DNA of 16,468 bases from an uncultured Deferribacteres bacterium. Its GTDB lineage: Bacteria; Zhuqueibacterota; Zhuqueibacteria; Zhuqueibacterales; Geothermadaptataceae. A program made the translations under genes and the position numbers. Shown here piece by piece: positions 1 through 16,468 of the stretch (position 1 is its first letter; each line of letters opens with the position of its first letter). The stretch lies in contig CAXHAT010000175.1 of assembly GCA_964014485.1 (NCBI GenBank), forward strand, positions 1 to 16,468, given 5' to 3'. The notes beneath the pieces are model-generated. The model had not been told where the DNA came from, did no database searches, and saw only the letters and a program-made list of their open reading frames with translations.

Positions 1-8
1 GCAATGGA

Positions 9-42
9 GTCTCGTGGGCTCGGAGATGTGTATAACAGACAG
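9..42 (+). other. Illumina Nextera adapter remnant including the Tn5 mosaic end (sequencing artefact)
   Basis: GTCTCGTGGGCTCGGAGATGTGTATAAcAGACAG matches the Nextera read-2 adapter GTCTCGTGGGCTCGGAGATGTGTATAAGAGACAG at 33 of 34 positions (mismatch at 36). Bases 1-8 sit where the i7 index would be. Confidence 0.97.
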
Positions 43-378
43 GCCTACACTGGAATGGAAATTCAAGTTCTGGATGATTACGCCGAAAAATACGCCGCAT
101 TGAAACCCTGGCAATACACCGGCAGCATCTACGCCGTGCAGCCCGCCGCTAAACGCGTGACGAAAAAAGCCGGGCAATGGCAGCATTATGAAATCACTTG
201 CGACGGCCCGCGCGTCACGGTCGTTTTGAACGGCGAAACCATCATCGATACGAATCTGGTCGAGCACATGCACAAGACCGAACGCAACCCCGGACTCAAG
301 CGCCGCCAGGGCTACATCGGTTTGCAAAACCACGGCGCCAAGGTCGAATATCGCAATATTCGAATTACGGAGTTTTAG
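43..378 (+). CDS. DUF1080 (3-keto-disaccharide hydrolase-like) protein, C-terminal part, 5'-truncated
   Basis: Motifs MEIQVLDD, GSIY, GQWQHYEI, VVLNG and GYIGLQNHG..VEYRNIRI are typical of DUF1080 C-termini. The first 13 residues of the tracked ORF are adapter-derived. Confidence 0.88.
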   Translation, partial: AYTGMEIQVLDDYAEKYAALKPWQYTGSIYAVQPAAKRVTKKAGQWQHYEITCDGPRVTVVLNGETIIDTNLVEHMHKTERNPGLKRRQGYIGLQNHGAKVEYRNIRITEF

Positions 379-405
379 CTAAACTCAGAATCGGAAAAAC
401 TACCT

Positions 406-885
406 ATGACGACAACTCTTGATCTTCTGGTTGGCGCTTGGGCGGGCGAAGGCGTTGCGCGGTTTCCAACCATCGAAACCGCGCCTTACTTCGAAGAAAT
501 TGTGGTGGAAAAAAGTCCCAACGAGCCGCATTATCATTACGAGCAAAATACCTGGCGTCACAATTCAGCGGGCGGAAAAGGCGAGTTTCTTCATTGGGAG
601 TCCGGATTCATTCAGATTTTGGAATCGGGCGGGCTGCAAATGCTAAACGCGCAAAACAGCGGACGCGTTGAAGTTTTGTTTGGTAAGATCGAAAAGGGCG
701 ACGGCGAAAACGGAGCGCTTTCTCTCACTTTCGAAAAAGAGTTAATCGGAAACGATGAGCGCATTATTACTGCGCGCCGCAGGTATGTTCTGCAGCGTAA
801 AAAGCTAAGTTACACGGTCGAAATGGCGACGACGGAAGCGCCGGAATTGCAACTTCACCTTGACGCCGTTTTGGAAAGGTCTTAA
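406..885 (+). CDS. Nitrobindin / THAP4-like heme-binding beta-barrel (DUF1794, FABP-like)
   Basis: 159 aa with LVGAWAGEG..FPTI, YFEEI, LHWESGF and a C-terminal LQLHLDAVL carrying the His at the expected heme-ligand position. Confidence 0.85.
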   Translation: MTTTLDLLVGAWAGEGVARFPTIETAPYFEEIVVEKSPNEPHYHYEQNTWRHNSAGGKGEFLHWESGFIQILESGGLQMLNAQNSGRVEVLFGKIEKGDGENGALSLTFEKELIGNDERIITARRRYVLQRKKLSYTVEMATTEAPELQLHLDAVLERS

Positions 886-1339
886 ACGCACAACTCCGCC
901 CAATGGGTTGAAGAAAAATTTCGTTTTGATGTCCTGACAAAAAAACGCCCCGTTCCGAGTTGCGAAACGGGGCGTTTTTATTTTTGAACTTTTCGGATAC
1001 GGGCGAATGGAATAACCAGGAACGGTCACCGCCGCCACCGCCGCCGCCACCACCACCGCCGTGCCTGCGACCGCCGCCTCTTCCACCGCCGTCGTTACGA
1101 CGCGGGCGGGCCTCATTCACGATCAATTTCCGACCTTCAAGTTCAGCGCCGTCAACACCGGCGATGGCAGCTTCGCCTTCCGCCTTTACAGGCATCTCAA
1201 CGAAACCAAACCCTCTCAATTCGCCTGTATCGCGATCTTTGATGAGCTTGACCTGGTCGACCGTGCCGTGGGCTTCGAACAGCTCTTTCACCGCATCTTC
1301 GTCCGTGCTTCTGGGTAAGTTGCTTACGTAAATATTCAC
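767..1339 (-). CDS. RNA-binding protein with a single RRM and Gly-rich tail; recognisable part ends near 1016
   Basis: GTG start at 1339 with CAGGAG 5 nt upstream. RNP2 NIYVSNL, RNP1 RGFGFVEM, then LIVNEARPR and a poly-Gly tail ending DRSW. The frame stays open to 767, but the natural end is probably 1013-1015 (see findings). Confidence 0.9.
   Translation of the reverse strand: MNIYVSNLPRSTDEDAVKELFEAHGTVDQVKLIKDRDTGELRGFGFVEMPVKAEGEAAIAGVDGAELEGRKLIVNEARPRRNDGGGRGGGRRHGGGGGGGGGGGDRSWLFHSPVSEKFKNKNAPFRNSERGVFLSGHQNEIFLQPIGRSCAFKTFPKRRQGEVAIPALPSSPFRPCNLAFYAAEHTCGAQ
939..985. terminator. Bidirectional rho-independent terminator between convergent genes
   Basis: AAAAAAACGCCCCGTT-loop-AACGGGGCGTTTTTATTTTT: a GC-rich stem with an A tract on the left and a T tract on the right, between the nitrobindin (+) and RRM (-) genes. 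Confidence 0.85.
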
Positions 1340-1663
1340 GATAACTCCTGGAAAAAATAATAGTATGGACCCAGCATGGCGTGTTGATCGGGAAGAACTT
1401 TGCAGGTTTGCTTCATAGCAACAAGTCTGTGGGCATAAATAAGTAACCGACTGGAACATATGGAAAAAAGGATTCGGCGGCAAGAAGGATTTTGCCTTTT
1501 TTCGTTCGTGCCAAATTGGTTCGCAGGTCGGCGCTTCTAACATATCTTCCCAATTTTAGCTTGAGATTATTTCGAATTTCGGCTTTGCGTCAGTGTATTA
1601 CACCAAAGTGGCGTAGTTTCAAATTCGATGCGAATAAAAACCAAATTTGCTTAAAAATACATT

Positions 1664-2494
1664 GTGGATCCCAAAGAATCACTGCGCCGCTTTTATGAAA
1701 ACGTCGGCGAAAAATACCCCGAAGAAGATGAAGTTTACAATACCTTGCGCGGCAGATTGCGCAGGCGATTTATTGGCGATTTTTTAAGGAATTGGCAAGG
1801 CGCGCTGCTGGACGTCGGGTGCAATCGCGGAATGTATTTGGCGGGCTACAGCGGCGGCGCGCGATTTGGCGTCGATTTGAGCCGGAGCGTATTGAAAAAG
1901 GCGCCCAAAAACGCAAACCTTCGCCTCGCCGTTGCCGATGCGGAAAACCTTGCTTGTTTTTTAGAGAACAGTTTCAATCATGTTCTTTGCAGCGAAGTGT
2001 TGGAACATTGCCTTAATCCGGAAGCGATATTTAAAGGCGTCGCCTCGGTTCTGGCGCCGGGAGGCGTTGCGCTGCTCACCACGCCGAATCACAAAGGCGA
2101 AAAACCGGAATGGATCGATTTGGGGCAGTTGAAGCACTTCGGCGTCGAGAGCGATTGCGAGGACGGCTATTTTCACACGGCCTACCGCCCGGAAGAGTTA
2201 AGCGCTTTCGCCCAAGACGCCGGATTGAAAATCCTTGATTGCGGGACTTTTGAGAAACAAGTGAAGTACGCGGCGAAAGTTCCGGCGGCGGTTTTGCTTT
2301 TCGGACGGTTGCTCAACAAGTTATTTCGGTCTGAAGCGTTTGATCGCATGAACGATCGTTTCTTTAATAGATTTTGCCTGGCAGTGAACGCGTTTTGCCG
2401 GATAACCAAGCTTGAAAAAATATTATTGAAATTCGTGCAAGAAGGCGTTCGCTCCTACATACTCATGCAAAAACCGGAGAGGGAAGGAAAATGA
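1664..2494 (+). CDS. Class I SAM-dependent methyltransferase
   Basis: Motif I LLDVGCNRG, then GVDLS, ADAENL, SFNHVLCSEVLEH and LAPGG..LLTTPN. GTG start. Substrate unknown. Confidence 0.88.
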   Translation: MDPKESLRRFYENVGEKYPEEDEVYNTLRGRLRRRFIGDFLRNWQGALLDVGCNRGMYLAGYSGGARFGVDLSRSVLKKAPKNANLRLAVADAENLACFLENSFNHVLCSEVLEHCLNPEAIFKGVASVLAPGGVALLTTPNHKGEKPEWIDLGQLKHFGVESDCEDGYFHTAYRPEELSAFAQDAGLKILDCGTFEKQVKYAAKVPAAVLLFGRLLNKLFRSEAFDRMNDRFFNRFCLAVNAFCRITKLEKILLKFVQEGVRSYILMQKPEREGK

Positions 2495-3639
2495 AGAGAT
2501 TTGAATTTCGCACCTTGTTTTCAACCTTGACAGGGTTTCAAACTTTGTCAGAACTGTCGAAAAAGCCTCGGTTTGTCATTCAGGAAGAATCCTTGATATC
2601 GCCCGGTAAAGATTACGCTCACAAGTTCAAGGGTTCGATCAAAAAAGATGCTTACAACATGACAATTTTGGGGAAGGCGACAGCTTCGTCAAAGCTGCTT
2701 GCCAAGCTTTTGCCGTTTGCGCTTATTTTTCTTTTTGGGTGCACACAAAACGCTGAACAGGATTCTGGGCCTGAACCGCAAACCCATTCTTTGTTTGGCG
2801 AGCCGCTTTTTCCAATTGAGCAGGACTCCACCGCCCGAGCGCGTCTGGACAGCAATCTCGCCGTGGCGCAGGCAAATTTTGACCATGACCCCGACAGCGA
2901 AGAAAACCTCATTTGGTTGGGACGGCGTACAGCGTATTTGTGGCAATACAAAAAAGCCGCCGAAATCTATTCCGACGGCCTTGAAAAGCATCCCGACAGC
3001 TACAAGCTTTTGCGGCATCGCGGCCATCGCTACATTTCGCTGCGCCAATTCGACAAGGCCGTCGCCGACTACAAGCGCGCCAGCGAATTGATTGCCGGCG
3101 TTGAAGACGAGGTCGAACCGGACGGCGCGCCGAACAAGTACAACATCCCGACGGGAACGTCGCACTTTAACATTTGGTACCACTACGGCCTGGCGCACTA
3201 TCTTCGCGGTGAATTTGAGGAAGCGCTGCGCTGCTACCGCGAGTGTATGAAATTCTCAAACAACCCGGACGCTCAGGTGGCGACCTCGGACTGGCTTTAC
3301 ATGACCCTGCGCCGCTTGGGACGAAAGGAAGAAGCGCAAGAAGTTCTGGAGCCGATCACGGCGGACATGAAAATTCTTGAAAACGACGCCTATCACAAGC
3401 GGCTTTTGATGTACAAAGGCGAAATTGCGCCGGATGAAATTCTAAACCTCGACGAAGCCGACGCCTTGCAAATTGCAACTTACGGCTACGGTGTTGCGAA
3501 TTGGTATTTCTACAACGGCGATCAGGAAAAGGCGGTTGAAATTTATCGAAAAGTGCTCGCCGGAACGTATTGGGCCGCTTTCGGATACATCGCCGCGGAA
3601 GCCGATTTGAAAAGGCTGGGTTTAACGCCCCAGGAATGA
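2491..3639 (+). CDS. Tetratricopeptide-repeat protein, probable lipoprotein
   Basis: Several TPR-like helical pairs (WLGRRTAYLWQYKKAAEIY, RHRGHRYISLRQFDKAVADY, WYHYGLAHYLRGEFEEALRCY) and a lipobox-like LIFLFGC after a hydrophobic run. The start is uncertain: 2491 (ATGA overlap, purine-rich SD) or 2659. Confidence 0.82.
   Translation: MKRFEFRTLFSTLTGFQTLSELSKKPRFVIQEESLISPGKDYAHKFKGSIKKDAYNMTILGKATASSKLLAKLLPFALIFLFGCTQNAEQDSGPEPQTHSLFGEPLFPIEQDSTARARLDSNLAVAQANFDHDPDSEENLIWLGRRTAYLWQYKKAAEIYSDGLEKHPDSYKLLRHRGHRYISLRQFDKAVADYKRASELIAGVEDEVEPDGAPNKYNIPTGTSHFNIWYHYGLAHYLRGEFEEALRCYRECMKFSNNPDAQVATSDWLYMTLRRLGRKEEAQEVLEPITADMKILENDAYHKRLLMYKGEIAPDEILNLDEADALQIATYGYGVANWYFYNGDQEKAVEIYRKVLAGTYWAAFGYIAAEADLKRLGLTPQE
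2528..2550. repeat. REP-like short palindrome (TGACAGGGTTT-C-AAACTTTGTCA)
   Basis: 11-bp stem with two G-T pairs. A related copy lies at 8231-8259 (18 of 27 identical by manual alignment). Confidence 0.6.
2554..2683. repeat. Degenerate nested palindromic (MITE/REP-like) element
   Basis: Nested inverted arms: CTGTCG 2554 / CGACAG 2678, TTGTCAT 2573 / ATGACAA 2659, GAATCCTTGA 2587 / TCAAGGGTTC 2627. Confidence 0.5.
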
Positions 3640-3689
3640 CGCGAGATTTCGCGTTTCTGTGTTGAATTCAATCGAAAACTAAGACCAGC

Positions 3690-6134
3690 ATGAACGACCG
3701 TTTAAAAATCTCAATTCGGGCCGTCGTCGGCATTTTGCTGACATTCGCTTTTCTGCTTTTTTTCTCATCTACTCGATTTGTAGAAGTGAATCGTCTGCAG
3801 AAATCACCCGACGAGCTTGCCGCAATAGCGGAGTCGTTTTTTAAAAGCGCTTCTCTCGGCGAATATTCGCTAAATCGGCGTACGTTGGCTCGCGTCAACG
3901 AAGACTTGCAGCATTATGCGCAGAAGTATTTGCCGGATGTCTCTAAACCCGCCGAATTGCCGCTGACAAGATGGGATTTCACTTGGCGAGGCGAGGTTGA
4001 AACAAGCGAAGACAAAGAAGAGAACGCTGTTTTTTACGTCATGCTTGATGCTCGCGGCAAGCTCCAGGAGTACCACGTCAATTCGCCGCTTCCGGCGGAT
4101 ACGACGGTGCTCGACGATGACGAAGCAATGGCGGTTGTTTTCGATTTTCTCAACCAAACCGGCGTCGACACGACGCGTCTCGTTCAAATCGACAAGACCG
4201 TCAACCGCGAAGCCGGGATTGTGCGGTGCGGTTTCAAGTATGAGCAGGCTTCCGCAGTTTCCGACGAACTTCTCGAAAAAATATCGGTTGATATGGTCGG
4301 TGCAACGGTCACGAAGTTCGAGCGGGAAATCGACGTCAACAAAGAAGCGTTCTCGTTTCCGGATTACGAAGAAGTCGGAGAAGGCGTTGTTATTGGCGGC
4401 ATGGTCGTCATGTGGATTTTGATTGGCGTGAACTTGATCATTGCTTTTTTTCGCCGCCTCCGCCGTGATGAAATTGACTTCAAGCGCGCCAAGAAAATCG
4501 CCGTCGTCTTTTCCACTCTTTTTATCATTACCATGAGTTTTATTTTCTGGGGCGATTGGGGAGAAATGTCGGCCGCTTTAGTTTTTGGCGGGCTTGCAAT
4601 TGGCGTGATGACGCTCCTGCTTTTCGGCGTTGTCGATGCTGTTTTACGCGAACGCTGGCCGGAGAAACTGCTGGTCTTCGATCTCGTTTTTCGGGGACAT
4701 TTCAGGGTTCGGGAAGTTGGAAAGTCCATGCTGGACGTCGTTTTCCTGTTAGGATTGTCCCTGAGCCTTCTCGGGGCGGCGCTTTGGATTGCGGAAGTGA
4801 CAAATCTCGGCTATATAAATTTAGACAGCGACGCCCTCATCGGTCTGCAATCGCCGTTCACGTTTTTTGGACAACTCTTTAGTAAAGGATTGCAAACATT
4901 CTTCGTCGGGCTGACGGCGCTGGCCTTTTGGCCTGCAATTTTGCGCCGAAGAATAAAGCGTCTCTGGCTCTTTCGGCTGCTCTTGACTCTGAGCCTGCTA
5001 TTCGCGGGCATGAGCTTGATTCTGATTCGCCCGTTTGTCTGGGGCCTTTTGTTTCTCCCCATTCTCTGTCTGCTTTGGGCTGAAATTGTCCGGCGATACG
5101 ACCTCATGACCATTCTCTGTACGCTGGCTTTAACGTATATCGCAACGGACGTCGCCGTATTTTCCCTGCTGCCTGAAGGTGCGGCGGGGACGTCGACAAT
5201 AATGACCGTTCTTTCTTTGGGCGGGTTTGTCGGACTGGGATTTTTCTTTTATTTGAGCCCGAAGAAAGCCAGGGACATCGGACAGTATATTCCGGAATAT
5301 GTGAATCGGATCGCCGAGCAGCAGCGCATGCAAAAGGAGTTGGAAATTGCGCGCCGGATTCAATTACAGTTCTTGCCGCAGCGCGAACCAGACGTCCCAG
5401 GGCTGGAAATCGCCAGCATTTGCATCCCGGCCATGGAAGTCGGCGGCGACTATTTTGATTTCTTCTATGAAGACAATCGCTACTTGAGCGTCATCGTCGG
5501 CGACGTTTCAGGCAAGGGCGTTTCAGCGGCGTTTTTCATGACGATGGCTAAGGGCATCATCAAAACCGTCGCCAAAAAAATACGCGCGCCCAAGTTGGCG
5601 CTTTCGGAGATGAACACGGTTTTTTATGAAAATTCGCCGCCCGAAGTTTTTATTAGCGCGATTTACGGTTTGTTCGACATGAAGGCGGGAAAACTGACTT
5701 TTGCGCGCGCAGGTCATAACCCGTTGGTCGTCAAAAAGAGCCTGACCGGGAAAGCCGAGTTCCTTAATCCGCGCGGGTTAGCCGTCGGGCTGGACTCAGG
5801 CGGCGTTTTTTCAAAAACGATTGAAGAAAGTGCGCTGCAACTCGAGCCGGGAGACGTTTTTCTGTTCTACACCGACGGCCTTTCTGAAGCGATGGACGCG
5901 GCCGGAGAAGAATTTGGCGAAGACCGCTTAACCGAAACCGTCAACAGCAACTCGACGCTTTCGGCCAAGGCTTTGCTCGAAAAAATCAAAATCGATGTGG
6001 ATCGCTTCGCCGGCAACGCGCAGCAACACGACGATTTTACCATGGTTGTCGTAAAAATCTCCGACACGACTTTTGGCACAAACGAAACGACCGAAAGTGA
6101 GCGGGTAGCTGTCGACAAGCCTGCCGCCTTTTGA
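3690..6134 (+). CDS. Polytopic membrane PP2C-type (SpoIIE/RsbU family) protein phosphatase
   Basis: C-terminal domain ELEIARRIQ..FLP, VGGDYFDF, VGDVSGKG, AGHNP, FYTDGLSE, DDFT. The N-terminal part has a TM helix, a soluble domain of about 200 aa and many hydrophobic helices. Confidence 0.92.
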   Translation: MNDRLKISIRAVVGILLTFAFLLFFSSTRFVEVNRLQKSPDELAAIAESFFKSASLGEYSLNRRTLARVNEDLQHYAQKYLPDVSKPAELPLTRWDFTWRGEVETSEDKEENAVFYVMLDARGKLQEYHVNSPLPADTTVLDDDEAMAVVFDFLNQTGVDTTRLVQIDKTVNREAGIVRCGFKYEQASAVSDELLEKISVDMVGATVTKFEREIDVNKEAFSFPDYEEVGEGVVIGGMVVMWILIGVNLIIAFFRRLRRDEIDFKRAKKIAVVFSTLFIITMSFIFWGDWGEMSAALVFGGLAIGVMTLLLFGVVDAVLRERWPEKLLVFDLVFRGHFRVREVGKSMLDVVFLLGLSLSLLGAALWIAEVTNLGYINLDSDALIGLQSPFTFFGQLFSKGLQTFFVGLTALAFWPAILRRRIKRLWLFRLLLTLSLLFAGMSLILIRPFVWGLLFLPILCLLWAEIVRRYDLMTILCTLALTYIATDVAVFSLLPEGAAGTSTIMTVLSLGGFVGLGFFFYLSPKKARDIGQYIPEYVNRIAEQQRMQKELEIARRIQLQFLPQREPDVPGLEIASICIPAMEVGGDYFDFFYEDNRYLSVIVGDVSGKGVSAAFFMTMAKGIIKTVAKKIRAPKLALSEMNTVFYENSPPEVFISAIYGLFDMKAGKLTFARAGHNPLVVKKSLTGKAEFLNPRGLAVGLDSGGVFSKTIEESALQLEPGDVFLFYTDGLSEAMDAAGEEFGEDRLTETVNSNSTLSAKALLEKIKIDVDRFAGNAQQHDDFTMVVVKISDTTFGTNETTESERVAVDKPAAF

Positions 6135-6346: not shown

Positions 6347-6413
6347 GACACATTGCGTGACGCTTCAGATGACATGTTTGGGCGCCGCACTCCTGAATAT
6401 TTTGGAGAAGGAA

Positions 6414-8144
<1,731 letters not shown>

Positions 8145-8230
8145 GCGTTAGCCCAAATGTCGAAGTTGAAGCCGGCGCTGCTCAGCTAACTTGCAGCATC
8201 GACGGCTTGTGGTGCAAATAACCGGCGTAG

Positions 8231-8259
8231 CTCTGGCAGGATTCGCAACCCTGTCAGAG
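8231..8259. repeat. REP-like palindrome, same family as 2528-2550
   Basis: CTCTGGCAGG...CCTGTCAGAG, a 10-bp stem with one G-T pair. Confidence 0.6.
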
Positions 8260-8335
8260 TTATAAGTCACTCGGAAGAACCCCAAATGGTGCAATTGAAA
8301 ATAGAAATGCTTGACCCTCAAAAACGTTTTTCAAG

Positions 8336-8409
8336 GTCATTCCTGCGGAGGCAGGAATCCAGAAAATGGTGCACAGTCACTGGATTCCTGCCTCCGCCTT
8401 CACGGAATG
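8336..8409. repeat. GTCATTCC...GGAATCC-type REP doublet
   Basis: Perfect 18-bp inverted repeat GCGGAGGCAGGAATCCAG (8345-8362) / CTGGATTCCTGCCTCCGC (8380-8397). The left arm is itself palindromic (ATTCCTGC-GGAG-GCAGGAAT). Confidence 0.8.
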
Positions 8410-8721
8410 CTGTGAAAAGTCTTCTCTCAGCGCACAATTCTCCCCAATGATTCGCTGCGCGACACAATCGACGCACCCCTCCATTCTCATAGTTCGGAAA
8501 ATCTAACGCGAATTATCGATTCTGCGAAATCAGAATTCGTTGTCCTTAATAAATTTCCGATCATAAACTATTGAAAAACATAGGCTCTTTTAAGCCTGTG
8601 TCATTGGTCTGAAGCTTGCGATAAGCGAAGCACACCCAAGACCAATCATCGCTGAGCAAAAGCGAGTTTTCGAAATCCGCACAATCCGCTTACAAAAATG
8701 AGGGAGGCGTCCGGATCAAAA

Positions 8722-9858
8722 ATGAAAGCGCTTGTACTTGGATCGGGGGAAATGGGCGAGACCGCCATTGAAGATTTGTACCAATACGGCGAATTCGACG
8801 AAATTCAGATCGCAACCAGAAACGTCGAAAAAGCCCGGGGGATCGCCGCCCGCCTGACCGATAAAAAAACAAAAATTTCCGTGACTCGCTTTGACCTGAG
8901 CAATGCCGCACCATTGGCGGAATTGATGCGCGGCTTCGACGTGGCCGTCAATTGCGCCGGGCCGAACTACAAGTATGAGTACGCCGTCGCCCGGGCCGCC
9001 ATTGCAGCGCGCACCAATCTCGTCGACATCAACGACGAATTTGAGGTGACGTTCAAAATGTTCGAGCTCGATGAACAGGCAAAAAAGGCGGGCGTTACAA
9101 TCGTTCTCGGCTTGGGCGCGAGTCCGGGCGTCAACAACGTTCTGGTGCGCGCCGCCGCCAATCGGCTCGATGAAGTGGACGAAATTCACACCGCGTGGGT
9201 CATGAGCGGCGCCGATCCCGGCGGTTTGGCGTTGAGTTATCATTTGCTCTATTCGCTGGCGGATAAGGCTTACACGGTGCAAGACGGTAAAATGCTCGAA
9301 GTGCAATCTTTCGTGGACGGCAAGGAACGCATCGAATTTCCCGAGCCGGTCGGTGCGCTCGATGTTTATCACATCGGCCATCCGGAGCCGATCACGCTCT
9401 CCCGCTGTTTTAAAAACGCGAAGTACGTTGACGACAAAGCGTCGTTTAACCCGCCGTTTGTCAATGATCTTATCGTCAGCCTCGGCAAAATGGTGCGCGA
9501 AGCGGAAGGGCCGATTCGGGTCAACGGTTACGAAGTCGACGCGATGGATTTTGCCGCGTCTTATCTGCACCAAAAATGCAAAAGCCTCAAAAACGTGCCG
9601 CTGGACGGTGCGCTGCGCGTGGAAGTTAAAGGCAAGAAAAAGGGCAAGGACAAGACGATCGTTTTTTCTTCGGCGACCAGGATTGCCAACGGGACGGGCA
9701 TTCCCGCCTCCATCGGCGCGATCATGTTGGCGAACGGAAAAATCAGGAAAACCGGCGTTCTGCCGCCGGAAGAATGCATCGAGCCCAACGATTTTTTCTA
9801 CGAAGTGCTGGATCGTAGAAACGTTGCGAAATTAAACGGATGGATTGAAGACGAATGA
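8722..9858 (+). CDS. Saccharopine dehydrogenase-family NAD(P)-dependent oxidoreductase
   Basis: N-terminal Rossmann MKALVLGSGEMG, then VAVNCAGP, NLVDI, GLGASPG, GHPEPITL, TGIPASIGA and GVLPPE. Its stop overlaps the next ATG (ATGA, 9855-9858). Alternative start at 8698. Confidence 0.88.
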   Translation: MKALVLGSGEMGETAIEDLYQYGEFDEIQIATRNVEKARGIAARLTDKKTKISVTRFDLSNAAPLAELMRGFDVAVNCAGPNYKYEYAVARAAIAARTNLVDINDEFEVTFKMFELDEQAKKAGVTIVLGLGASPGVNNVLVRAAANRLDEVDEIHTAWVMSGADPGGLALSYHLLYSLADKAYTVQDGKMLEVQSFVDGKERIEFPEPVGALDVYHIGHPEPITLSRCFKNAKYVDDKASFNPPFVNDLIVSLGKMVREAEGPIRVNGYEVDAMDFAASYLHQKCKSLKNVPLDGALRVEVKGKKKGKDKTIVFSSATRIANGTGIPASIGAIMLANGKIRKTGVLPPEECIEPNDFFYEVLDRRNVAKLNGWIEDE

Positions 9859-11108
9859 CGGCGATTTTTGACAAATGCAGGCAGTTCTATTCCGAAGCGG
9901 AATACGCGCGAAAACTGGGCTGGCCGGCCAATCCGCGACTGGCGCAGGCGTTAGGGCTTTATCCCTACTTCCTCCCGATTGATCAATCCGAAGGAACGGA
10001 AGTCGTGATCGACGGCGAACGGCTGATCATGATCGGCTCGAACAATTACCTTGGCTTGACGACGCACCCTCGCGTCCGAGAAGCGGCGGCTCAGGCGGTC
10101 AAAAAATACGGCACGGGATGCACAGGCTCAAGATTTCTGAACGGCACGTTGGAAATGCATCTTGAACTGGAAGAACGGCTGGCGGAGTTCGTCAGCAAAG
10201 AAAAAGCCCTGGTTTTCAGCACCGGTTTTCAAACGAATTTAGGCACGATCACGGCGGTGGCGGGCAAGGACGACGTCATTATTTGCGACAAGGACGATCA
10301 CGCCAGCATCGTTGACGCAGCCTTTCTCGCGAAAGCCGAAAACGGCGCCGAGATGCGATTTTTCCGCCACAACAACATGCACTTGCTGGAAAAAATTCTT
10401 GCTCACTATCCGCACGAGCGGGGAAAATTGGTCGTCGTTGATGGCGTTTTCAGCATGGGCGGGGACGTTGCGCCGCTGCCTGAAATCGTCGAGTTGTGCG
10501 AAAAATACGGCGCGGCGTTGATGGTTGACGAAGCGCATTCACTGGGCGTTCTGGGCGGCGGAAGAGGCGTTGCCGCTGAATTCGAATGCGTCGAAAAAGT
10601 CGATCTCATCATGGGAACGTTCAGCAAATCCTTCGCTTCGATTGGCGGATTTGTCGCGGCGGACAAGGAAATCATCCAGTGGATTCAGCATTTTGGCCGC
10701 TCGTTCATGTTCAGCGCCAGCCTGCCGCCCGCGAGCGTTGCAACCGTGCTCGCCGCTTTGGAGGTCATCGCCGAAGAGCCGGAGCGCATCCGTCGCGTCA
10801 ATGAAATCGCGGCGTACATGCGTTCGGAATTGCGGGCGATGGGCTACGACGTTGGCGACAGCCAAACACCGATCGTGCCCGTGATCATCGGCGACCAGTT
10901 CAAAACGATGCAAGTGTGGGACAAGCTTTTTCGGGCGGGCGTTTATACCAATGCCGCATTGCCGCCCGCCGTCCCCGCCCATCGTTCCTTGCTGCGCACG
11001 AGCTTCATGGCAACGCACACGGACGCCCAAATGGAAAAAGTGCTGCGCGCGTTTCGGGGAGTGGGTGAAGAACTTGATTTGTTGAAAGGACGGAAAGAAT
11101 TCGCGTAG
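9855..11108 (+). CDS. spt: PLP-dependent alpha-oxoamine synthase, serine palmitoyltransferase-like
   Basis: GLYPYF.PI..SEGTEV, GSNNYLGL, GTGCTGSRFLNGT, DHASI, VDEAHS, PLP-lysine motif GTFSKS and a PPAVP loop. YPYF and GTFSKS point to SPT rather than BioF or Kbl, and a CerS-like gene lies nearby. Confidence 0.8.
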   Translation: MTAIFDKCRQFYSEAEYARKLGWPANPRLAQALGLYPYFLPIDQSEGTEVVIDGERLIMIGSNNYLGLTTHPRVREAAAQAVKKYGTGCTGSRFLNGTLEMHLELEERLAEFVSKEKALVFSTGFQTNLGTITAVAGKDDVIICDKDDHASIVDAAFLAKAENGAEMRFFRHNNMHLLEKILAHYPHERGKLVVVDGVFSMGGDVAPLPEIVELCEKYGAALMVDEAHSLGVLGGGRGVAAEFECVEKVDLIMGTFSKSFASIGGFVAADKEIIQWIQHFGRSFMFSASLPPASVATVLAALEVIAEEPERIRRVNEIAAYMRSELRAMGYDVGDSQTPIVPVIIGDQFKTMQVWDKLFRAGVYTNAALPPAVPAHRSLLRTSFMATHTDAQMEKVLRAFRGVGEELDLLKGRKEFA

Positions 11109-11191
11109 AAGCAAAATTTCGGCTGAATGAATACGGAATTTGCTCTTTGACGCACTTTACAAGCCGACATTAGAAAACTGGACGAAACAAA

Positions 11192-11905
11192 ATGGAAATG
11201 CAAAATGACGCCCAATCAGGCAGCGTTGATTTCAGTTCTACTATCTCTCGTCTAGATTTGAAGGCAAAAAAATCTAGGAACAGAGTGACTATAATATCGA
11301 TGCTGCTCTTTTCTTTTGTAGCAGCGTATGCTGTAATCGTGTTCTACGAATTATTGGATAGGAACCTAATCGGGACAGAAGTCACTATTGCCGGTACTTA
11401 CAACCGCCCAGAATTAGAAAGGAATCTCGTTCGGCGTGTTTCAGTTTTGGTTGACTCATTGATCGGCAGCCGATTCCATTCCAAAAGTATAGAGAAGTTT
11501 CAGCCGCCGTCTCTTCATGATGCTGTGAGGCTTGAAAAAAGGATAGAAAAAGCTCTGAACGATCTCAATAGCGTCGCGAAAATTGTCGATACCGGAAAAA
11601 GGGGGACTTCAAATTCTTCAGCAATCGCGAATGCCGTCACAAACGGCATTTTTGGCTTAGGGGCTATTGCGTTCGTGATTTTGATGATTCAGATGGCCCT
11701 CATGTTCATGAAATATCACACAAGACTGGCAGAACTTTATGAAGCGCAGGCGGACGCTTTGCGGGCTTCTAACGGTGATGCGGACAGAGCTTATCGCTTC
11801 ATGGAGCAATTCTCTCCAAATGTTATTGAAATTGGCAGGTCGCCCGTGACCTTATATGAAAAGGCACTGGAAACGGTGAAGGAAGTTGCTAAAAGAACAA
11901 AATGA
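11192..11905 (+). CDS. Hypothetical membrane protein (two predicted TM helices), atypical base composition
   Basis: 237-aa ORF with hydrophobic segments VTIISMLLFSFVAAYAVIVFY and IFGLGAIAFVILMIQMALMFM. Three 60-nt lines I counted were 37-43% GC, versus 55-63% for two lines of spt. Confidence 0.75.
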   Translation: MEMQNDAQSGSVDFSSTISRLDLKAKKSRNRVTIISMLLFSFVAAYAVIVFYELLDRNLIGTEVTIAGTYNRPELERNLVRRVSVLVDSLIGSRFHSKSIEKFQPPSLHDAVRLEKRIEKALNDLNSVAKIVDTGKRGTSNSSAIANAVTNGIFGLGAIAFVILMIQMALMFMKYHTRLAELYEAQADALRASNGDADRAYRFMEQFSPNVIEIGRSPVTLYEKALETVKEVAKRTK

Positions 11906-12064
11906 GTTTTGAAGCAAGAACCATCGAAAATCTATGGAACTGCCAACAGAATGGATGAGTGAACTTGAATTTTCGATCTATGTGCGCAAATACCAGATTT
12001 TGCATAGGCCGACGGGAACGGGAAAAGCCATTGCTCTTGATTTTTAAAAGAGGAGGATTTTTTC

Positions 12065-13360
12065 ATGGAAACCCTGCAAGCAAAAGATTTAACCGCGCTC
12101 CAGGAAATTACACCCAACGGCAAGGCGTTCGACACGTCAAAGCTTTTCCGCCTGCCCTGGTCGCTCTCCGATAACGCGATGACCTGGCTGGAACCGACGC
12201 GCAAATGCAACATCGTCTGCGACGCCTGTTTTCACATGAACGACCCGCTCAGCCAGAAGTCGCTCGAGCAAATCGAGCTGGAAGTCAAAACGATGTTGAA
12301 ATTGCGTCGATGTGACGCCATGCTCATCGCCGGGGGCGAGCCGCTCACCCATCCGAATATCGCGGAAATTACGCGCATTGTGAAATCCTACGGCGTGAAG
12401 CCCGTGCTCATCACCAACGGCGTTGGCTTGAACCGCTCAAAAATCCACAGACTAAAAGAAGCGGGGATGCACGGCTTCACTTTCCACATCGATTCTCACC
12501 AGCATCGTCCGGGGTGGAGGGGCAAAACCGAAACCGAACTCAACGAATTGCGCCAGGAGTTCGCCGACATGCTCGCCGAAGAAGGCGGTCTTTCTTGCGC
12601 CTACAACATGACGGTTTTTCCCGATACTTTAAAAGACGTTCCCGCCGTCGTCGAATGGGCGGCGAAAAACATCGACAAGGTCAATATTATGACTTTGATT
12701 CCGGTCAGGATGGTCAGCGCGTCCGATCCGTATAATTTTTATGCGGGCGGCGAACGCATCGCGATTTCCGACACGCCGTATTTGTCGAAAGAAAATTATC
12801 GCGACTTGACTGCGCCGGAAGTTTATGACGAGATTTTGAAAGCTTTGCCCGATTTCAAATTCAACGCCTACCTCGGCGGCACGGCGCTTCCCGCAACGCC
12901 GAAATGGATCATCGGCAATCATCTCGGCACGAAGGAACGCTTCTTCGGCAACATGGGGCCAAAAACGATGGAATTGCTGCAAAACGTCTATCATATGTTC
13001 GCCGGATCGTATCTCGCCTACGCGAAACCCAGCCTCTCCAGAAAAGCAAAGTTGATGTTCTTTTTCAGTCTGTTCGACAAAGAACTCAGGAAAACGGCGG
13101 GGCGCTTTTTTCGTGAAGCATTCCGCAATCCATCCTTGTTTTTGAAAAACTTACACATTCAATCGATTTCGGTAGTGCAGCCCGTTGATATTTTGCCGAA
13201 CGGCGAAAAAGACAACTGCGACGGCTGCCCGAACATGACCTACTGGGAAGGCCGTCTCGTCGCCGCTTGCCGCCTGGAAGAATACTTGATTTACGGCGGC
13301 CCGATTTCCGTCACGCCGAAAGACCCGGCGGAAAACGGCAAGGAGGCGAGCGTGTCATGA
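12065..13360 (+). CDS. Radical SAM protein with additional C-terminal cysteines
   Basis: AGGAGG SD, CX3CX2C (CNIVCDAC), GGEP, TNG and a C-terminal CDGCPN...AACRLEE. Confidence 0.92.
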   Translation: METLQAKDLTALQEITPNGKAFDTSKLFRLPWSLSDNAMTWLEPTRKCNIVCDACFHMNDPLSQKSLEQIELEVKTMLKLRRCDAMLIAGGEPLTHPNIAEITRIVKSYGVKPVLITNGVGLNRSKIHRLKEAGMHGFTFHIDSHQHRPGWRGKTETELNELRQEFADMLAEEGGLSCAYNMTVFPDTLKDVPAVVEWAAKNIDKVNIMTLIPVRMVSASDPYNFYAGGERIAISDTPYLSKENYRDLTAPEVYDEILKALPDFKFNAYLGGTALPATPKWIIGNHLGTKERFFGNMGPKTMELLQNVYHMFAGSYLAYAKPSLSRKAKLMFFFSLFDKELRKTAGRFFREAFRNPSLFLKNLHIQSISVVQPVDILPNGEKDNCDGCPNMTYWEGRLVAACRLEEYLIYGGPISVTPKDPAENGKEASVS

Positions 13361-15033
13361 AGAAAATTCTGTTGACCACCGTCCATCGTCCGCTTGGTGT
13401 GGAGAGCGAAACCTGCACGCCGAATATTCAGGCGGAAATGTATCACGTGCAAGTCACGCGCTCGCAGGGGCCGTTCAGCATCCGGTCGGTTTGCACAGGT
13501 TGGGGCTTGGAATTCATCGCGGCAAATCTCGAAGCGCCGGTGACCGTTTTGCACTATCCAACCAAGAGCATTCTCTTACGAGAATTACGCAAAGGCTACG
13601 ATTACGTCGGCGTCAGCTTTGTCATGTGTACCTTCCCGAAAACCATTGAATTGTGCGAGATGGTGCGCCGGGTTGCGCCGCAAAGCAAAATCGTTTTGGG
13701 CGGCTACGGAACCGTGCTGGAAGAATGCGACCAATACGCGGATTTTGTTTGCCGTGAGGAAGGCGTGAATTTTTTCAGAAGGCTGCTGGGAGAGCCTGAA
13801 GTCGGAAAATTCAAAACGCCGCGCATTATGCGAAAACTGAAAATCATGTCCGTCACCACGCGCCCGGAGGCGATTATCCCGGCTGGTTTGGGCTGCTCGC
13901 GCGGCTGTGATTTTTGTTGCACCAGCCATTTTTTCGACCGCAAGCACGTGCCGCTGCTCAAATCGGGCAGAGAAATTCACGAAGCCATGGTCGCGGCCGA
14001 TTTTCGCGGCAAGTCATTTCGCAATATCGGCATTATCGACGAAGACTTCCTGTCCGACCGGAACCGCATCGAAGAAATGATTCATCTCAACGCGAAGGAA
14101 ATTGAAAAACCGATTTTCTTTTCCTGCCTGACCAGCCTTTTGAGCCTCTCGCAATATACCGATGAAGAATTGCTGTCGATGGGGCTGTCCGGCGTGTGGG
14201 TTGGGATCGAATCGAAACGCGCGAAATATAAAAAACTCAAAAACTTTGACGCCGCAGTAATGATCGACGCGCTGAAGCATCTCGGAATCATTCCGCTAAC
14301 CTCGATGATCATCGGCTACGACTGGCACGACGAAGAAACGATTGAGGAAGATTTTCAATATCTCGTCTCGCTAAAACCAGCGTTTTCGCAGATCATGATT
14401 TACAGTCCTTGTCCGCAAACGCCGCTCTATCGCAAGGTTCAACGTCTGGATCGGCATGTTGACATTCCTTACAAATATCACGACGGTTTTCATACGCTCT
14501 TCAAGCATCCCAACCTCAGCGGGGAGAGATTGGAGAGAATTTTGGGCGAGCTTTTCGAGCGTGAATATGAAGAGTTGGGGCCGTCGGTTTGTCGCGTGCT
14601 CGAAGTCCAAATGTTGGGTTATATCACGCTGCACAACAGCGCGAATCCACTTTTCCGGGCACGGGCGCGAGAGCAGAAAAAGCTTTGTTTGGAAATTTAC
14701 CCGCTGCTCAAAACGGCCATCAAGGAAGCGCCGTCCGACAAAGTGCGCGCTTATCTGGTCAGCCTGAAAGAGCAGGTAGAAGATTTGTTCAGGATTCCGA
14801 AGTTGACGAAAACGTTGGAGTTCTTTGTCCCGGCGCTCGCCGCGTACACGCGATTGAAAGACAAACTGATCCCAAATCCACAGCCTCCGGCGCTGATCAA
14901 TCGGTATCGTTTTCAAAATGGAATGCAGCGTCCCGCATCTGGGCCTCAAAAAAATGAACGCGATTCTGAACATGAATTTGAACCTTCGCCTGAAAATTTG
15001 ACGCGGAGGCGAGAGCAAATCGACGTTTATTAG
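13357..15033 (+). CDS. Cobalamin (B12)-binding radical SAM protein
   Basis: ATG 13357 overlaps the upstream TGA and has AGGAGG at 13341-13346. N-terminal B12-binding-like YDYVGVSF...KIVLGGYG...FVCREEG, CX3CX2C (CSRGCDFC), IIDEDF, VGIES, IIGYD and SPCPQTPLY. Confidence 0.88.
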   Translation: MKKILLTTVHRPLGVESETCTPNIQAEMYHVQVTRSQGPFSIRSVCTGWGLEFIAANLEAPVTVLHYPTKSILLRELRKGYDYVGVSFVMCTFPKTIELCEMVRRVAPQSKIVLGGYGTVLEECDQYADFVCREEGVNFFRRLLGEPEVGKFKTPRIMRKLKIMSVTTRPEAIIPAGLGCSRGCDFCCTSHFFDRKHVPLLKSGREIHEAMVAADFRGKSFRNIGIIDEDFLSDRNRIEEMIHLNAKEIEKPIFFSCLTSLLSLSQYTDEELLSMGLSGVWVGIESKRAKYKKLKNFDAAVMIDALKHLGIIPLTSMIIGYDWHDEETIEEDFQYLVSLKPAFSQIMIYSPCPQTPLYRKVQRLDRHVDIPYKYHDGFHTLFKHPNLSGERLERILGELFEREYEELGPSVCRVLEVQMLGYITLHNSANPLFRARAREQKKLCLEIYPLLKTAIKEAPSDKVRAYLVSLKEQVEDLFRIPKLTKTLEFFVPALAAYTRLKDKLIPNPQPPALINRYRFQNGMQRPASGPQKNERDSEHEFEPSPENLTRRREQIDVY

Positions 15034-15086
15034 CCAGCCCGGACAATTCGGGATCAAGCGTCGGCGATCAATCAACCTCGTGACTT

Positions 15087-15162
15087 AACGCAGAGGCGCT
15101 GAGATCGGAGAGCTTCGCTGAGTTTTTTCTGTGCTGCTCAGCGTCCTTTCCGTCTCTGCGTT
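15087..15162. repeat. REP-like inverted repeat (AACGCAGAGGCG type)
   Basis: AACGCAGAGGCG (15087-15098) / CGTCTCTGCGTT (15151-15162), 12 bp with one G-T pair. Internal CGCTGAG / CTCAGCG copies. Confidence 0.65.
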
Positions 15163-15277
15163 GTGAAAAGCCTTGCCAAAAACTCGTGCTCGAATGTTTT
15201 ATCGACTATGACGGAAATCAAACGATGTTACATGCCGTCACAAACTAATTCTTACCTATAAGTCCGGGCAAGAACTT

Positions 15278-15486
15278 AGCTCCAAAGGAGCGGAATGGGA
15301 TAGCGAAGGGCGAAGCCCTGGAAATTCGGGGCAACCTTGTTTTCACAAAGCCCTGAAAGGGCGAAATAAATTGCCGTCCTGGCTTCGACGCTGCATTATG
15401 CCGCCCTTTCAGGGCTTTGAAGAGGGAGGGGGCGCTCATTTTCCAGGGCGCTGCCCTTCGCTATTACATTTGACCCCGTTGGGTCT
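15278..15486. mobile_element. About 210-bp nested palindromic non-autonomous element (MITE/REPIN-like)
   Basis: Perfect arms: CAAAGCCCTGAAAGGGCG 15346-15363 / 15402-15419 (18 bp), GCCCTGGAAA 15315-15324 / 15440-15449 and ATAGCGAAGGGC 15300-15311 / 15453-15464. Small terminal hairpins GCTCCAAAGGAGC and GACCCCGTTGGGTC. No transposase is in the window, so mobility is inferred. Confidence 0.7.
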
Positions 15487-15573
15487 TCTGAATTCGCCGA
15501 CAATATCCTTCAGTCCGGCGCTAATGAGACGATGCTCGCCCCAAGACTCAGGATGCGCGGCAATGTATAAAAT

Positions 15574-15696
15574 GGAGTGCAAGGCTTGCCTTGCTATTCC
15601 TGTGATGATTTTCTCAAAACTTGTCGTTAAACGTTCCAAATTTGCTGCTCTTTTCTTGCGGGTTGAACCAAAAGAGCAAAGCAAGCTTTGCACTCC
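15574..15696. repeat. GGAGTGC...GCACTCC-type REP doublet
   Basis: GGAGTGCAAGGCTTGCCTTGCT (15574-15595) and AGCAAAGCAAGCTTTGCACTCC (15675-15696) are complementary at 20 of 22 positions. Confidence 0.7.
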
Positions 15697-15750
15697 TTGC
15701 CTTTTCGGCGCGGTGCGTAATATCATTTACTCAATTCAGGAACGAGTTAT

Positions 15751-16468
15751 ATGATGGTGCAATCTGTCAAGAATCGCGGAGAGTTGCGCGCGTTTATCCA
15801 TTTGCCCGCGAAGCTCCACCGCCGGCATGAAAAATGGGTTCCGCCGATTTATGCTCAGGAGTGGAAATACCTCAGTCCTGAAAAGAACAAGGCCTTTCCC
15901 TACTGCGACGTTGTTTTGGCGCTTGCCGTTCGGGACGGAAAGCCGGAAGGTAGAATCATGGGCATAATCAATCGGCGCAGCAACGAATTACGCCAGGAAA
16001 AAACGGCGCGATTCGGGCTGCTCGAATGCCCCGACGATGCGGAAACGGCGCAAGCGCTGCTGGATTATATCGAGAGCTGGGCGCGGGGCCGCGGCATGGA
16101 GAAGATCGTCGGGCCGATGGGATTCAGCGATCAAGACCCGGAAGGATTTTTGATCGAAGGATTCGAGTTTGAGCCGACTTTGGCGACCTACTACAATTTC
16201 GAATATATGATCGATCTTGTGACCTCCGCCGGGTACTCAAAAGAAATCGAGTATGTCGTCTACAAAGTGCCGGTTGCGGAGCCGCCGCAAATTTACAAAA
16301 AAATCAGCGCCAGAATTGCGAAACGGAAGGAATTCTCGCTTCGGGAATTTAGCAAACGGCGGGAACTCAAACCGTTCATTGTGCCGGTTTTCGAGCTGAT
16401 TAATGAGACTTTCCTTGAAATTTACGGCTTTGTCCCGCTTGATCAGGAAGAAATGGCCGCGCTTGCAC
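15751..16468 (+). CDS. GNAT-fold N-acyltransferase, YghO / bacterial ceramide synthase (CerS)-like, 3'-truncated by the window end
   Basis: Not in the ORF track. Manual translation is open for 239 codons to the window end: MMVQSVKNRGELRAFIHLP...WVPPI...GRIMGIIN...ARFGLLEC...LLDYIESWARGRGMEKIVGPMGFSDQDPEGFLIEGF...YYNFEY...GYSKEIEY...YGFVPL, which fits the YghO/CerS family pattern. Confidence 0.82.
   Translation, partial: MMVQSVKNRGELRAFIHLPAKLHRRHEKWVPPIYAQEWKYLSPEKNKAFPYCDVVLALAVRDGKPEGRIMGIINRRSNELRQEKTARFGLLECPDDAETAQALLDYIESWARGRGMEKIVGPMGFSDQDPEGFLIEGFEFEPTLATYYNFEYMIDLVTSAGYSKEIEYVVYKVPVAEPPQIYKKISARIAKRKEFSLREFSKRRELKPFIVPVFELINETFLEIYGFVPLDQEEMAALA

Follow-up and report, generated by a model that had tools for sequence, protein, structure and literature searches.

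The stretch of DNA analysed here (the window, 16,468 nucleotides) is the entire contig C175 (CAXHAT010000175.1) of an uncultured Deferribacteres bacterium, whose genome is assembled as 8.4 Mb in 465 contigs. Its second half holds six co-oriented genes for a saccharopine-dehydrogenase-like reductase (SDH), an α-oxoamine synthase (AOS) resembling serine palmitoyltransferase (Spt), a membrane protein, two radical S-adenosylmethionine (radical SAM) enzymes and a GNAT-type N-acyltransferase (GNATw), and had been proposed in an initial annotation to be a sphingolipid locus extended by radical SAM tailoring enzymes. All six open reading frames (ORFs) on the + strand are confirmed, as are two gene pairs joined by ATGA overlaps, one at 9855-9858, where the AOS start lies on the SDH stop, and one at 13357-13360, where the second radical SAM gene starts on the stop of the first. 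The repeat-filled gap reported before the last gene is also present, measures exactly 717 nucleotides and contains inverted repeats. The observation of the initial annotation is confirmed, and its interpretation is supported in part. The features are as follows.

8698-9858, + strand: SDH, a saccharopine-dehydrogenase-like NAD(P) oxidoreductase of 386 amino acids (Pfam Sacchrp_dh_NADP and Sacchrp_dh_C)
9855-11108, + strand: AOS, an Spt-like α-oxoamine synthase (pyridoxal-phosphate enzyme) of 417 amino acids (Aminotran_1_2)
11192-11905, + strand: membrane ORF of 237 amino acids with two hydrophobic stretches, no family
12065-13360, + strand: rSAM1, a radical SAM enzyme of 431 amino acids with GDGT-MAS/Tes-like overall architecture (Radical_SAM)
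13357-15033, + strand: B12-type (class-B-like) radical SAM enzyme of 558 amino acids (B12-binding and Radical_SAM, both below cut-off)
15034-15750, strandless: intergenic dispersed palindromic repeats, 717 nucleotides with six inverted-repeat pairs
15751-16467, + strand: GNATw, the N-terminal 239 amino acids of a tandem-GNAT N-acyltransferase of about 372 amino acids, identified by its orthologues and a paralogue

The SDH reading frame opens at 8698, and the in-frame ATG at 8722 is the start used in the initial annotation. Rfam recognizes no family anywhere in the window, the gap included, and a promoter and terminator scan of 8100-16468 gave sites no more numerous than in shuffled sequences. 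The stretch occurs in three DNA runs, all from one study, and no RNA dataset containing it is listed.

On balance, we regard this region as one copy of a conserved multi-phylum membrane-lipid cluster that couples a ceramide-type backbone to radical tailoring of the lipid tails. Apparently it is a form of the bacterial sphingolipid pathway that includes a Tes-like radical enzyme and is as yet undescribed; full-text literature searches for the gene combination found no paper describing the cluster. The words radical, GNAT, saccharopine, macrocycl and membrane-spanning are absent from the main text of a study on Black Sea bacterial sphingolipids (PMC11334938), and passages of a 2026 review of lipid-modifying radical SAM enzymes (PMC13459092) mention sphingolipids merely as a lipid class.

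The recurrence of the cluster was analysed with an rSAM1 profile made from 18 homologues, which was used to scan one genome per species and gave 526 species hits. The best 80 of these loci were kept and their neighbouring genes identified by tblastn with the window proteins, after which the loci were split by the identity of their rSAM1 to that of the window, and not by their neighbours, into 31 close (at least 49.5% identity) and 49 distant loci. GNATw is a neighbour in 15 of the close and none of the distant loci, SDH (48-66% identity) in 13 and none, and the B12-type gene in 9 and none, while a paralogue of rSAM1 is found in 15 close loci and one distant locus, a PAP2_3 gene in 7 and one, and AOS in 6 and two. 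When the comparison is confined to the 16 close loci with at least 3 kb of upstream and 3.5 kb of downstream DNA, GNATw is present in 12, a second radical SAM gene (B12-type or rSAM1 paralogue) also in 12, SDH in 5 and AOS in 5; 14 of the 16 contain at least one of SDH, AOS and GNATw. The labels of the carriers, all of which are metagenome-assembled genomes (MAGs), are Bacteroidota, Aminicenantes, Gemmatimonadota, Vicinamibacteria, Holophagales and Ignavibacteriota. A Bacteroidetes MAG (locus L006) has the gene order of the window, with a PAP2_3 gene in the slot of the membrane ORF and the GNAT gene 15 nucleotides downstream of the B12-type gene.

A reciprocal scan of metagenome contigs, started from the B12-type enzyme, returned 17 loci, 13 of which encode an orthologue with 61-77% identity. 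Directly upstream of this orthologue lies rSAM1 in nine cases and SDH in two, with no upstream DNA in the other two, and the GNAT gene follows downstream in eight of the nine loci that have room for it. The remaining four loci comprise one spurious match and three matches to the C-terminal third at 55-58% identity (L130, L131 and L133). These three cover residues 311-519 only, have no cluster partners and may encode a different protein with a common C-terminal domain.

Because the reciprocal scan finds the same neighbours, the two radical SAM genes are linked with the GNAT and SDH, and since the arrangement recurs in other phyla it goes beyond chance. The check suggested in the initial annotation, recurrent linkage of the radical SAM homologues, thus gave a positive result from the rSAM1 side as well as from the B12-type side, and the functional link that it had assumed is borne out by cross-phylum synteny of both radical SAM genes, the GNAT and the reductase. 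The genes for the SDH-like enzyme, rSAM1, a second radical SAM enzyme (B12-type or rSAM1 paralogue) and GNATw travel together, and the cluster often also includes its own Spt-like AOS and a head-group transferase of the PAP2_3 or CDP-alcohol type. The gene set proposed at the outset therefore holds for the radical SAM pair, the GNAT and the reductase, but AOS is the least constant partner (5/16 against 12/16 for the GNAT). Given this figure, and given that an SDH orthologue is missing from all five genomes searched for it, neither AOS nor SDH is obligatory for the radical SAM/GNATw module. An Spt-like AOS of at least 48% identity is encoded somewhere in the genome in 10 of 10 cluster-bearing genomes examined, and the module often operates alongside an Spt-GNAT pair encoded at a separate site. 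In Gemmatimonadota, the SDH gene directly precedes rSAM1 and the sole Spt-like AOS lies elsewhere in the genome, in one case adjoining a GNAT paralogue.

The AOS protein matches Aminotran_1_2 with 193 bits. Against the NCBIfam models it scores 498 bits for SerpalmtaseCFB (cut-off 640), 416 for SerpalmtaseBetaP (500), 386 for bioF (426), 362 for Kbl (460) and 221 for CqsA; being below the cut-offs of the Spt, bioF and Kbl models, it is a curated member of no class. Among PDB sequences its ten best matches are all bacterial Spt (387-286 bits), followed by Kbl and BioF with at most 266, ALAS with 189 and CqsA with 132 bits. A 25-row IQ-TREE phylogeny was computed from high-scoring segment pairs of at least 300 amino acids (shorter ones, e.g. 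that of L037, were left out), with E. coli BioF as the outgroup, E. coli Kbl and four Bacteroidota proteins passing the curated Spt cut-off, and without HemA, CqsA and alphaproteobacterial or other proteobacterial Spt. In this tree the window AOS falls into a clade with 100/99 support together with the cluster AOS of L006, L027, L024, L032 and one Aminicenantes genome, i.e. of four other phyla. This clade is nested in a 91/94 clade with the curated Spt and the second AOS of the source genome (contig C54), and E. coli Kbl and the third AOS of the genome (contig C98) group with each other outside it. The PDB ranking and the tree both place the protein on the Spt side, as had been claimed, and not with BioF or Kbl. 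AOS is therefore Spt-like and a candidate serine palmitoyltransferase, whose amino-acid substrate would most likely be serine.

The source genome has a second, minimal AOS-GNAT pair at C54:21987-24397, whose AOS scores 557 bits on the Spt model and which is adjoined by a PTS_EIIA_2 gene. In L006, a gene with a helix-turn-helix domain and PTS_EIIA_2 likewise follows the large cluster.

Because the window is the whole contig, its last gene is cut by the assembly: the GNATw reading frame runs off the contig end after 239 amino acids, and the missing C-terminal half could not be located in the rest of the assembly. The truncated protein has no Pfam match of its own, since the Acetyltransf_1 region (residues 215-351 of the paralogue) lies beyond the break. 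It is 46-61% identical to the GNAT downstream of the radical SAM genes in other loci and 31-33% identical to the full-length paralogue GNATp on C54, which carries Acetyltransf_1 and directly follows the AOS there. The predicted structure of the L006 orthologue (pLDDT 90) has a tandem-GNAT fold, and its best PDB matches are tandem-GNAT amino-sugar N-acetyltransferases, followed by MshD, Eis and N-myristoyltransferase. By sequence, the GNAT finds nothing meaningful in the PDB and generic GNAT clusters only in the ESM Atlas. Its assignment as a GNAT rests on the paralogue and on full-length orthologues.

The GNAT family is large (7789 proteins at E ≤ 1e-5 among 8000 scored), and its relation to Spt was examined in Bacteroidota. 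As only 6 of 201 genomes pass the cut-off of the curated Spt model, a co-occurrence analysis over all 201 was dropped in favour of five genomes with Spt and five poor in AOS. In four of the five Spt-positive genomes, a family member directly adjoins an Spt above the curated cut-off; the search of the five lacking an Spt-like AOS gave a single 56-bit fragment and no full-length member. The identification of the last gene as a GNAT is supported by the tandem-GNAT model of the orthologue, and the gene neighbourhoods link the family to Spt.

SDH matches Sacchrp_dh_NADP with 67 bits and Sacchrp_dh_C with 47 bits, and its relatives in the PDB are saccharopine and carboxyspermidine dehydrogenases. 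The best NCBIfam match is carboxynorspermidine synthase, at 38.6 bits against a cut-off of 800. The Rossmann motif begins at residue 14, with no signal-peptide-like leader ahead of it. The CerR of Caulobacter, the reductase of the known ceramide pathway, belongs to a family that we take to be NAD-dependent epimerase/dehydratase-like. As SDH is of the saccharopine dehydrogenase family and lacks a leader, whereas CerR is described as periplasmic (PMC11087976), SDH is not CerR, and the term non-canonical reductase chosen in the initial annotation is appropriate. No second SDH, rSAM1 or B12-type gene was found in the source genome.

rSAM1 contains the Radical_SAM domain (57 bits in Pfam), and several lines of evidence relate it to the archaeal tetraether synthase Tes, also named GDGT-MAS (MJ0619; PDB-codes: 7TOL, 7TOM), which is its best match in sequence and in structure, over the core and the C-terminal domain. 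An rSAM1 profile finds 7tol first among PDB sequences (E 2.9e-13, core only), and in a Foldseek search the AlphaFold model (pLDDT 87) places 7tom and 7tol at the top with 461 aligned columns, compared to about 200-270 for other radical SAM enzymes. A VIA-align superposition on GDGT-MAS gives a Z-score of 24.7 and a root-mean-square deviation of 3.6 over 326 residues, spanning residues 6-412 of the model and -1 to 481 of the chain; the next entries, viperin and MoaA, have a Z-score of 16.2. GDGT-MAS carries a rubredoxin and an N-terminal cluster domain ahead of the core and a C-terminal cluster domain behind it, and the C-C bond is formed at the last of these, where a substrate carbon bonds to a cluster sulfur (PMC9433317). 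Like GDGT-MAS, rSAM1 has an extra cysteine site C-terminal to the barrel; a C-terminal CxxC...C motif and Cys-178 are invariant. Its shorter length is consistent with its lacking both metal domains (rubredoxin and [Fe4S4]N) found at the N-terminus of GDGT-MAS. Its identity is 16-18%, and it would fail the criterion of E < 1e-50 used for listed bacterial Tes homologues (PMC8941075). We infer that rSAM1 is a minimal Tes-like enzyme keeping the core and a candidate C-terminal metal site. Its host lipid is probably an amide lipid, unlike the isoprenoid ether of GDGT-MAS. That a radical SAM enzyme of this locus acts on lipid chains, as originally suggested, is in line with its nearest solved relative being a lipid-tail C-C coupling enzyme. 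A further enzyme of comparable role is Mss of Thermotoga and Thermoanaerobacter, a radical SAM enzyme proposed to couple bacterial lipid tails under anoxic conditions and reported to be non-homologous to Tes by BLAST (PMC13159169, PMC13459092).

In a FastTree phylogeny of 99 rSAM1 family members, the cluster clade comprises 37 rows, among them the window, with a support of 100. A second-copy clade of 16 rows occurs inside clusters only, a large clade of 42 rows is without cluster neighbours, and a small one of 4 rows stems from Chloroflexota-labelled MAGs. The second-copy paralogue is 36-44% identical to rSAM1 and stands instead of or beside the B12-type gene (L007, L008, L013, L016, L019, L026-L031, L033, L077, L119 and L120). 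The large, distant clade (L036-L075, e.g. L038:10001-12021; 40-48% identity) has no cluster partners, but a class I SAM methyltransferase with a weak CMAS-like match lies downstream in nine of its loci, and the two may form another lipid-tail module. A four-row subclade with close rSAM1 of 50-53% identity (L023, L017, L025 and L035) shows no cluster partners in the flanking DNA that is present; the L023 record is labelled as a Thermoplasmatota archaeon.

The second radical SAM enzyme resembles class B enzymes such as HpnP, HpnR, HpnJ and GrsA/B (PMC13459092) in possessing a candidate B12-binding-like N-terminal domain and a CxxxCxxC motif, whose residues Cys-180, Cys-184 and Cys-187 are invariant in 12 orthologues. 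Its matches to their models are far below cut-off, and it has no solved relative: NCBIfam gives weak matches to HpnJ (40 bits), PhpK, HpnR (28 bits) and BchE, the single sequence finds nothing in the PDB, and a profile finds AprD4 only, at E 0.046. Its reaction may be a methylation, a ring closure or a cross-linking.

Additional genes in the related loci point to the type of product. A PAP2_3 gene lies between AOS and rSAM1 in L006, L027 and L032 and after rSAM1 in L013, L016 and L019; the Pfam family presumably includes sphingolipid head-group transferases, and the proteins have no NCBIfam match. Downstream of the cluster in L008 lie genes for a CDP-alcohol transferase and for a protein matching the inositol-1-phosphate cytidylyltransferase half of IPCT/DIPPS (135 bits); in L029, rSAM1 is preceded by a FabH-like KAS III, and the gene after the GNAT encodes a CDP-alcohol transferase. 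The presence of PAP2_3 and CDP-alcohol genes in the clusters argues for a membrane lipid bearing a free hydroxyl to which a phospho head group is transferred, and the KAS III possibly supplies special starter units for the tails.

The source genome itself encodes no PAP2_3 homologue, and the slot that this gene fills in L006, L027 and L032 is occupied by the membrane ORF. The latter has no family in Pfam, NCBIfam, PADLOC or PHROGs, its segment has a GC content of 0.44 compared to 0.51-0.57 on either side, and its 25 homologues include entries named from a gammaproteobacterial MAG and from Vibrio diabolicus. None of the 80 and 17 related loci was found to contain it. Contrary to the initial annotation, which had counted it in the gene set, the membrane ORF is therefore a local insertion outside the conserved set. 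In a BLASTP comparison with the L006 PAP2_3 protein it gave E 0.64.

The second peculiarity is the gap before GNATw, which the initial annotation had raised as a caveat. Orthologous loci have 0-20 nucleotides between the B12-type gene and the GNAT, and the gap sequence has 292 further matches on many contigs of the same genome (blastn; 30-80 copies per segment). At least three families of dispersed palindromic repeats, with about 30-80 copies each, make up the gap and have the look of repetitive extragenic palindromes or miniature inverted-repeat transposable elements. As these repeats are the genome's own, the separation of the GNAT is explained and the caveat resolved; as they recur on many of its contigs, they also tie this contig to the source genome. 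The join of the B12-type gene to the GNAT rests on assembly and synteny, since no public contig gives a unique bridge over the central part of the gap.

Within its own lineage the cluster stands isolated. The close rSAM1 type occurs in 0 of 40 relatives and the distant type in 7 of 40, and among 167 genomes of the phylum the source genome alone has the B12-type gene. This absence from relatives is most simply explained by horizontal acquisition, which is the probable origin of the cluster here. Afterwards, the PAP2_3 gene would probably have been lost to the unrelated inserted ORF, and the genome's own repeats would have been inserted before the GNAT.

The pathway that the cluster most resembles is the bacterial Spt-bCerS-CerR ceramide pathway, with CCNA_01212 and BF9343_4218 as proven bCerS enzymes, reportedly described by Stankeviciute et al. 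in 2022. Like this pathway, the cluster combines an Spt-like AOS with a soluble N-acyltransferase of the GNAT type and with an NAD(P) oxidoreductase, and the source genome also possesses the simpler AOS-GNAT pair. In contrast to the system of Caulobacter and Bacteroides (PMC11087976, PMC11324152, PMC10865984), the cluster contains a leaderless reductase of the saccharopine dehydrogenase family in place of the periplasmic CerR, an AOS below the curated Spt cut-offs and two radical SAM genes in the operon, and no gene for an acyl carrier protein (ACP) or an acyl-ACP synthetase was seen in the annotated cluster loci.

We propose the following route. AOS would form a 3-keto long-chain base by condensing an acyl thioester with an amino acid, which is most likely serine, and GNATw would N-acylate this base. 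The SDH-like enzyme would then take the place of CerR and reduce the 3-keto group. rSAM1, with its radical SAM cluster and the putative four-cysteine C-terminal site, would activate an unactivated tail carbon in the manner of Tes and form a C-C bond in the assembled lipid, leading to a macrocyclic or membrane-spanning product, and the B12-type enzyme may add a methyl group or a further C-C bond. A more specific and distinctly tentative version of this proposal is that the carriers, anaerobic and soil bacteria of at least five phyla, make tail-to-tail C-C-linked sphingolipids, either macrocyclic ceramides or membrane-spanning "two-headed" bis-ceramides as the amide-lipid counterpart of the archaeal glycerol dialkyl glycerol tetraethers (GDGTs); the minimal Tes-like rSAM1 would build these sphingolipids and the B12-type enzyme decorate them.

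Several points weigh against a ceramide-based pathway of this kind. AOS is present in only 5/16 well-flanked loci, is below the equivalog cut-offs of the Spt models NF047600 (498.3 of 640), NF047599 (415.9 of 500) and NF047603 (339.5 of 670), and could use an amino acid other than serine. The likeness of the GNAT to bCerS is one of fold and gene linkage, which makes it a putative ceramide synthase. Members of the saccharopine dehydrogenase family are known for C=N chemistry and not for ketone reduction, and no SDH orthologue was found in five of five cluster-bearing genomes searched, where the best match is 27-30% identical. With regard to the radical SAM enzymes, the best NCBIfam match of rSAM1, Tes (NF045702), reaches 60.8 bits against a cut-off of 450 and covers model positions 87-288 of 486; at 431 residues the protein is about 95 residues shorter than GDGT-MAS (526); and only seven cysteines are invariant, namely 48, 52 and 55 (CxxxCxxC), 178, 385, 388 and 402; the correspondence of the last four to the C-terminal cluster ligands of GDGT-MAS is putative. 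The B12-type enzyme falls just below the Pfam cut-offs, with 27.8 bits for B12-binding (cut-off 32.1) and 28.0 for Radical_SAM (29.5). None of the public contigs over 13000-16468 spans the gap, and 15367-15571 is covered by repeat pieces only. Finally, the product, a methylated, cyclised or cross-linked ceramide, is one that we infer from the genes.

The main rival to ceramide tailoring holds the substrates of the radical SAM/GNATw module to be lipids other than sphingoid ones. Here the radical SAM/GNATw/SDH module would tailor fatty acyl chains or glycerolipids to membrane-spanning lipids of a diabolic-acid-like or branched-GDGT-like kind, or an N-acyl amino-acid lipid, and AOS would be an occasional neighbour because membrane-lipid genes cluster. 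The low frequency of AOS in the well-flanked loci favours this explanation, as do the Aminicenantes loci, which comprise KAS III (FabH-like), rSAM1, GNATw, a CDP-alcohol transferase and the paralogue of rSAM1 but neither AOS nor SDH within 10 kb, and bacterial Tes homologues have been proposed as enzymes of branched GDGT synthesis (PMC8941075, PMC11868695). We nevertheless find it rather unlikely, because the GNATw family adjoins curated Spt, the AOS of these clusters form a dedicated clade (100/99) that spans five phyla and is confined to them, all ten carriers examined possess an Spt-like AOS, and no glycerol-ether genes were seen in the annotated loci.

A different role for SDH would alter the product within a sphingolipid framework. 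BioU acts on the BioF product by reductive amination, and the cluster resembles this pair in combining an AOS, here Spt-like and not BioF-like, with a saccharopine-dehydrogenase-like enzyme that would act on an amino-ketone product. SDH could by analogy aminate the 3-keto group reductively, giving a 2,3-diamino long-chain base to be acylated by two GNATs. Known members of the family act on amine-carbonyl imines, the best relatives of SDH are carboxy(nor)spermidine and saccharopine dehydrogenases with a weak match to BioU (E 0.0012), and the carriers do have two GNAT paralogues. All these matches are, however, far below cut-off (38.6 of 800 bits for carboxynorspermidine synthase and 17.9 of 600 for the BioU model), no amino-donor gene is conserved in the cluster, and clusters without SDH exist, which makes amination improbable.

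We give a shade less credence still to the idea that the cluster makes a diffusible small molecule, such as an α-hydroxyketone-type signal or an amino-ketone-derived product tailored by the radical SAM enzymes. AOS enzymes also make CAI-1-type autoinducers, with the CqsA model and structures scoring 221 and 132 bits here, and radical SAM pairs are common in natural-product clusters. But CqsA scores lowest among the AOS classes, the clusters contain head-group transferases (PAP2_3, CDP-alcohol) and KAS III, the nearest structure to rSAM1 binds whole membrane lipids, and the annotated loci share no conserved gene for a transporter, a regulator or a precursor peptide. That the genes are unrelated neighbours, or the contig chimeric or wrongly binned, is very improbable, for although the close rSAM1 type and the B12-type gene are missing from relatives (0/40 and in all but 1/167 genomes) and the join at 15367-15571 has no unique bridge in public contigs, gene set and order recur in other phyla, the gap repeats lie on many contigs of the same genome and the word depth is similar on both sides of the gap (8.3 and 9.9).

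The upstream genes at 1-6134 are unrelated to the cluster, judging from their Pfam matches. These encode a 3-keto-disaccharide hydrolase fragment, a THAP4-like haem-binding protein and an RRM protein (minus strand), further a class I methyltransferase, a TPR protein and an 814-amino-acid SpoIIE-type phosphatase. The gene at 6357-8144 encodes a protein of 595 amino acids with weak esterase/tannase matches only and a 45% identical paralogue on contig C8; it was not found in related cluster loci.

Bacterial sphingolipid synthesis has been elucidated only in recent years and is now predicted in dozens of phyla (PMC11334938), and bacterial homologues of the archaeal tetraether synthase are known whose function is unproven (PMC8941075, PMC11868695). 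A conserved operon joining a ceramide-type backbone to a Tes-like enzyme offers both fields a concrete, testable system. It provides with SDH a third, non-homologous candidate for the keto-reduction step, with GNATw a dedicated ceramide-synthase-like paralogue, and with rSAM1 a minimal Tes-like enzyme of 431 amino acids, equipped with a single additional cysteine site and suited to expression with defined substrates. Should the product span the membrane, more bacteria and more lipid classes would be capable of forming monolayer membranes, and the reading of environmental lipid biomarkers would be affected as well. C-C-linked sphingolipids, if they are made, would constitute a lipid class without described biosynthesis and a possible source of orphan environmental lipids.

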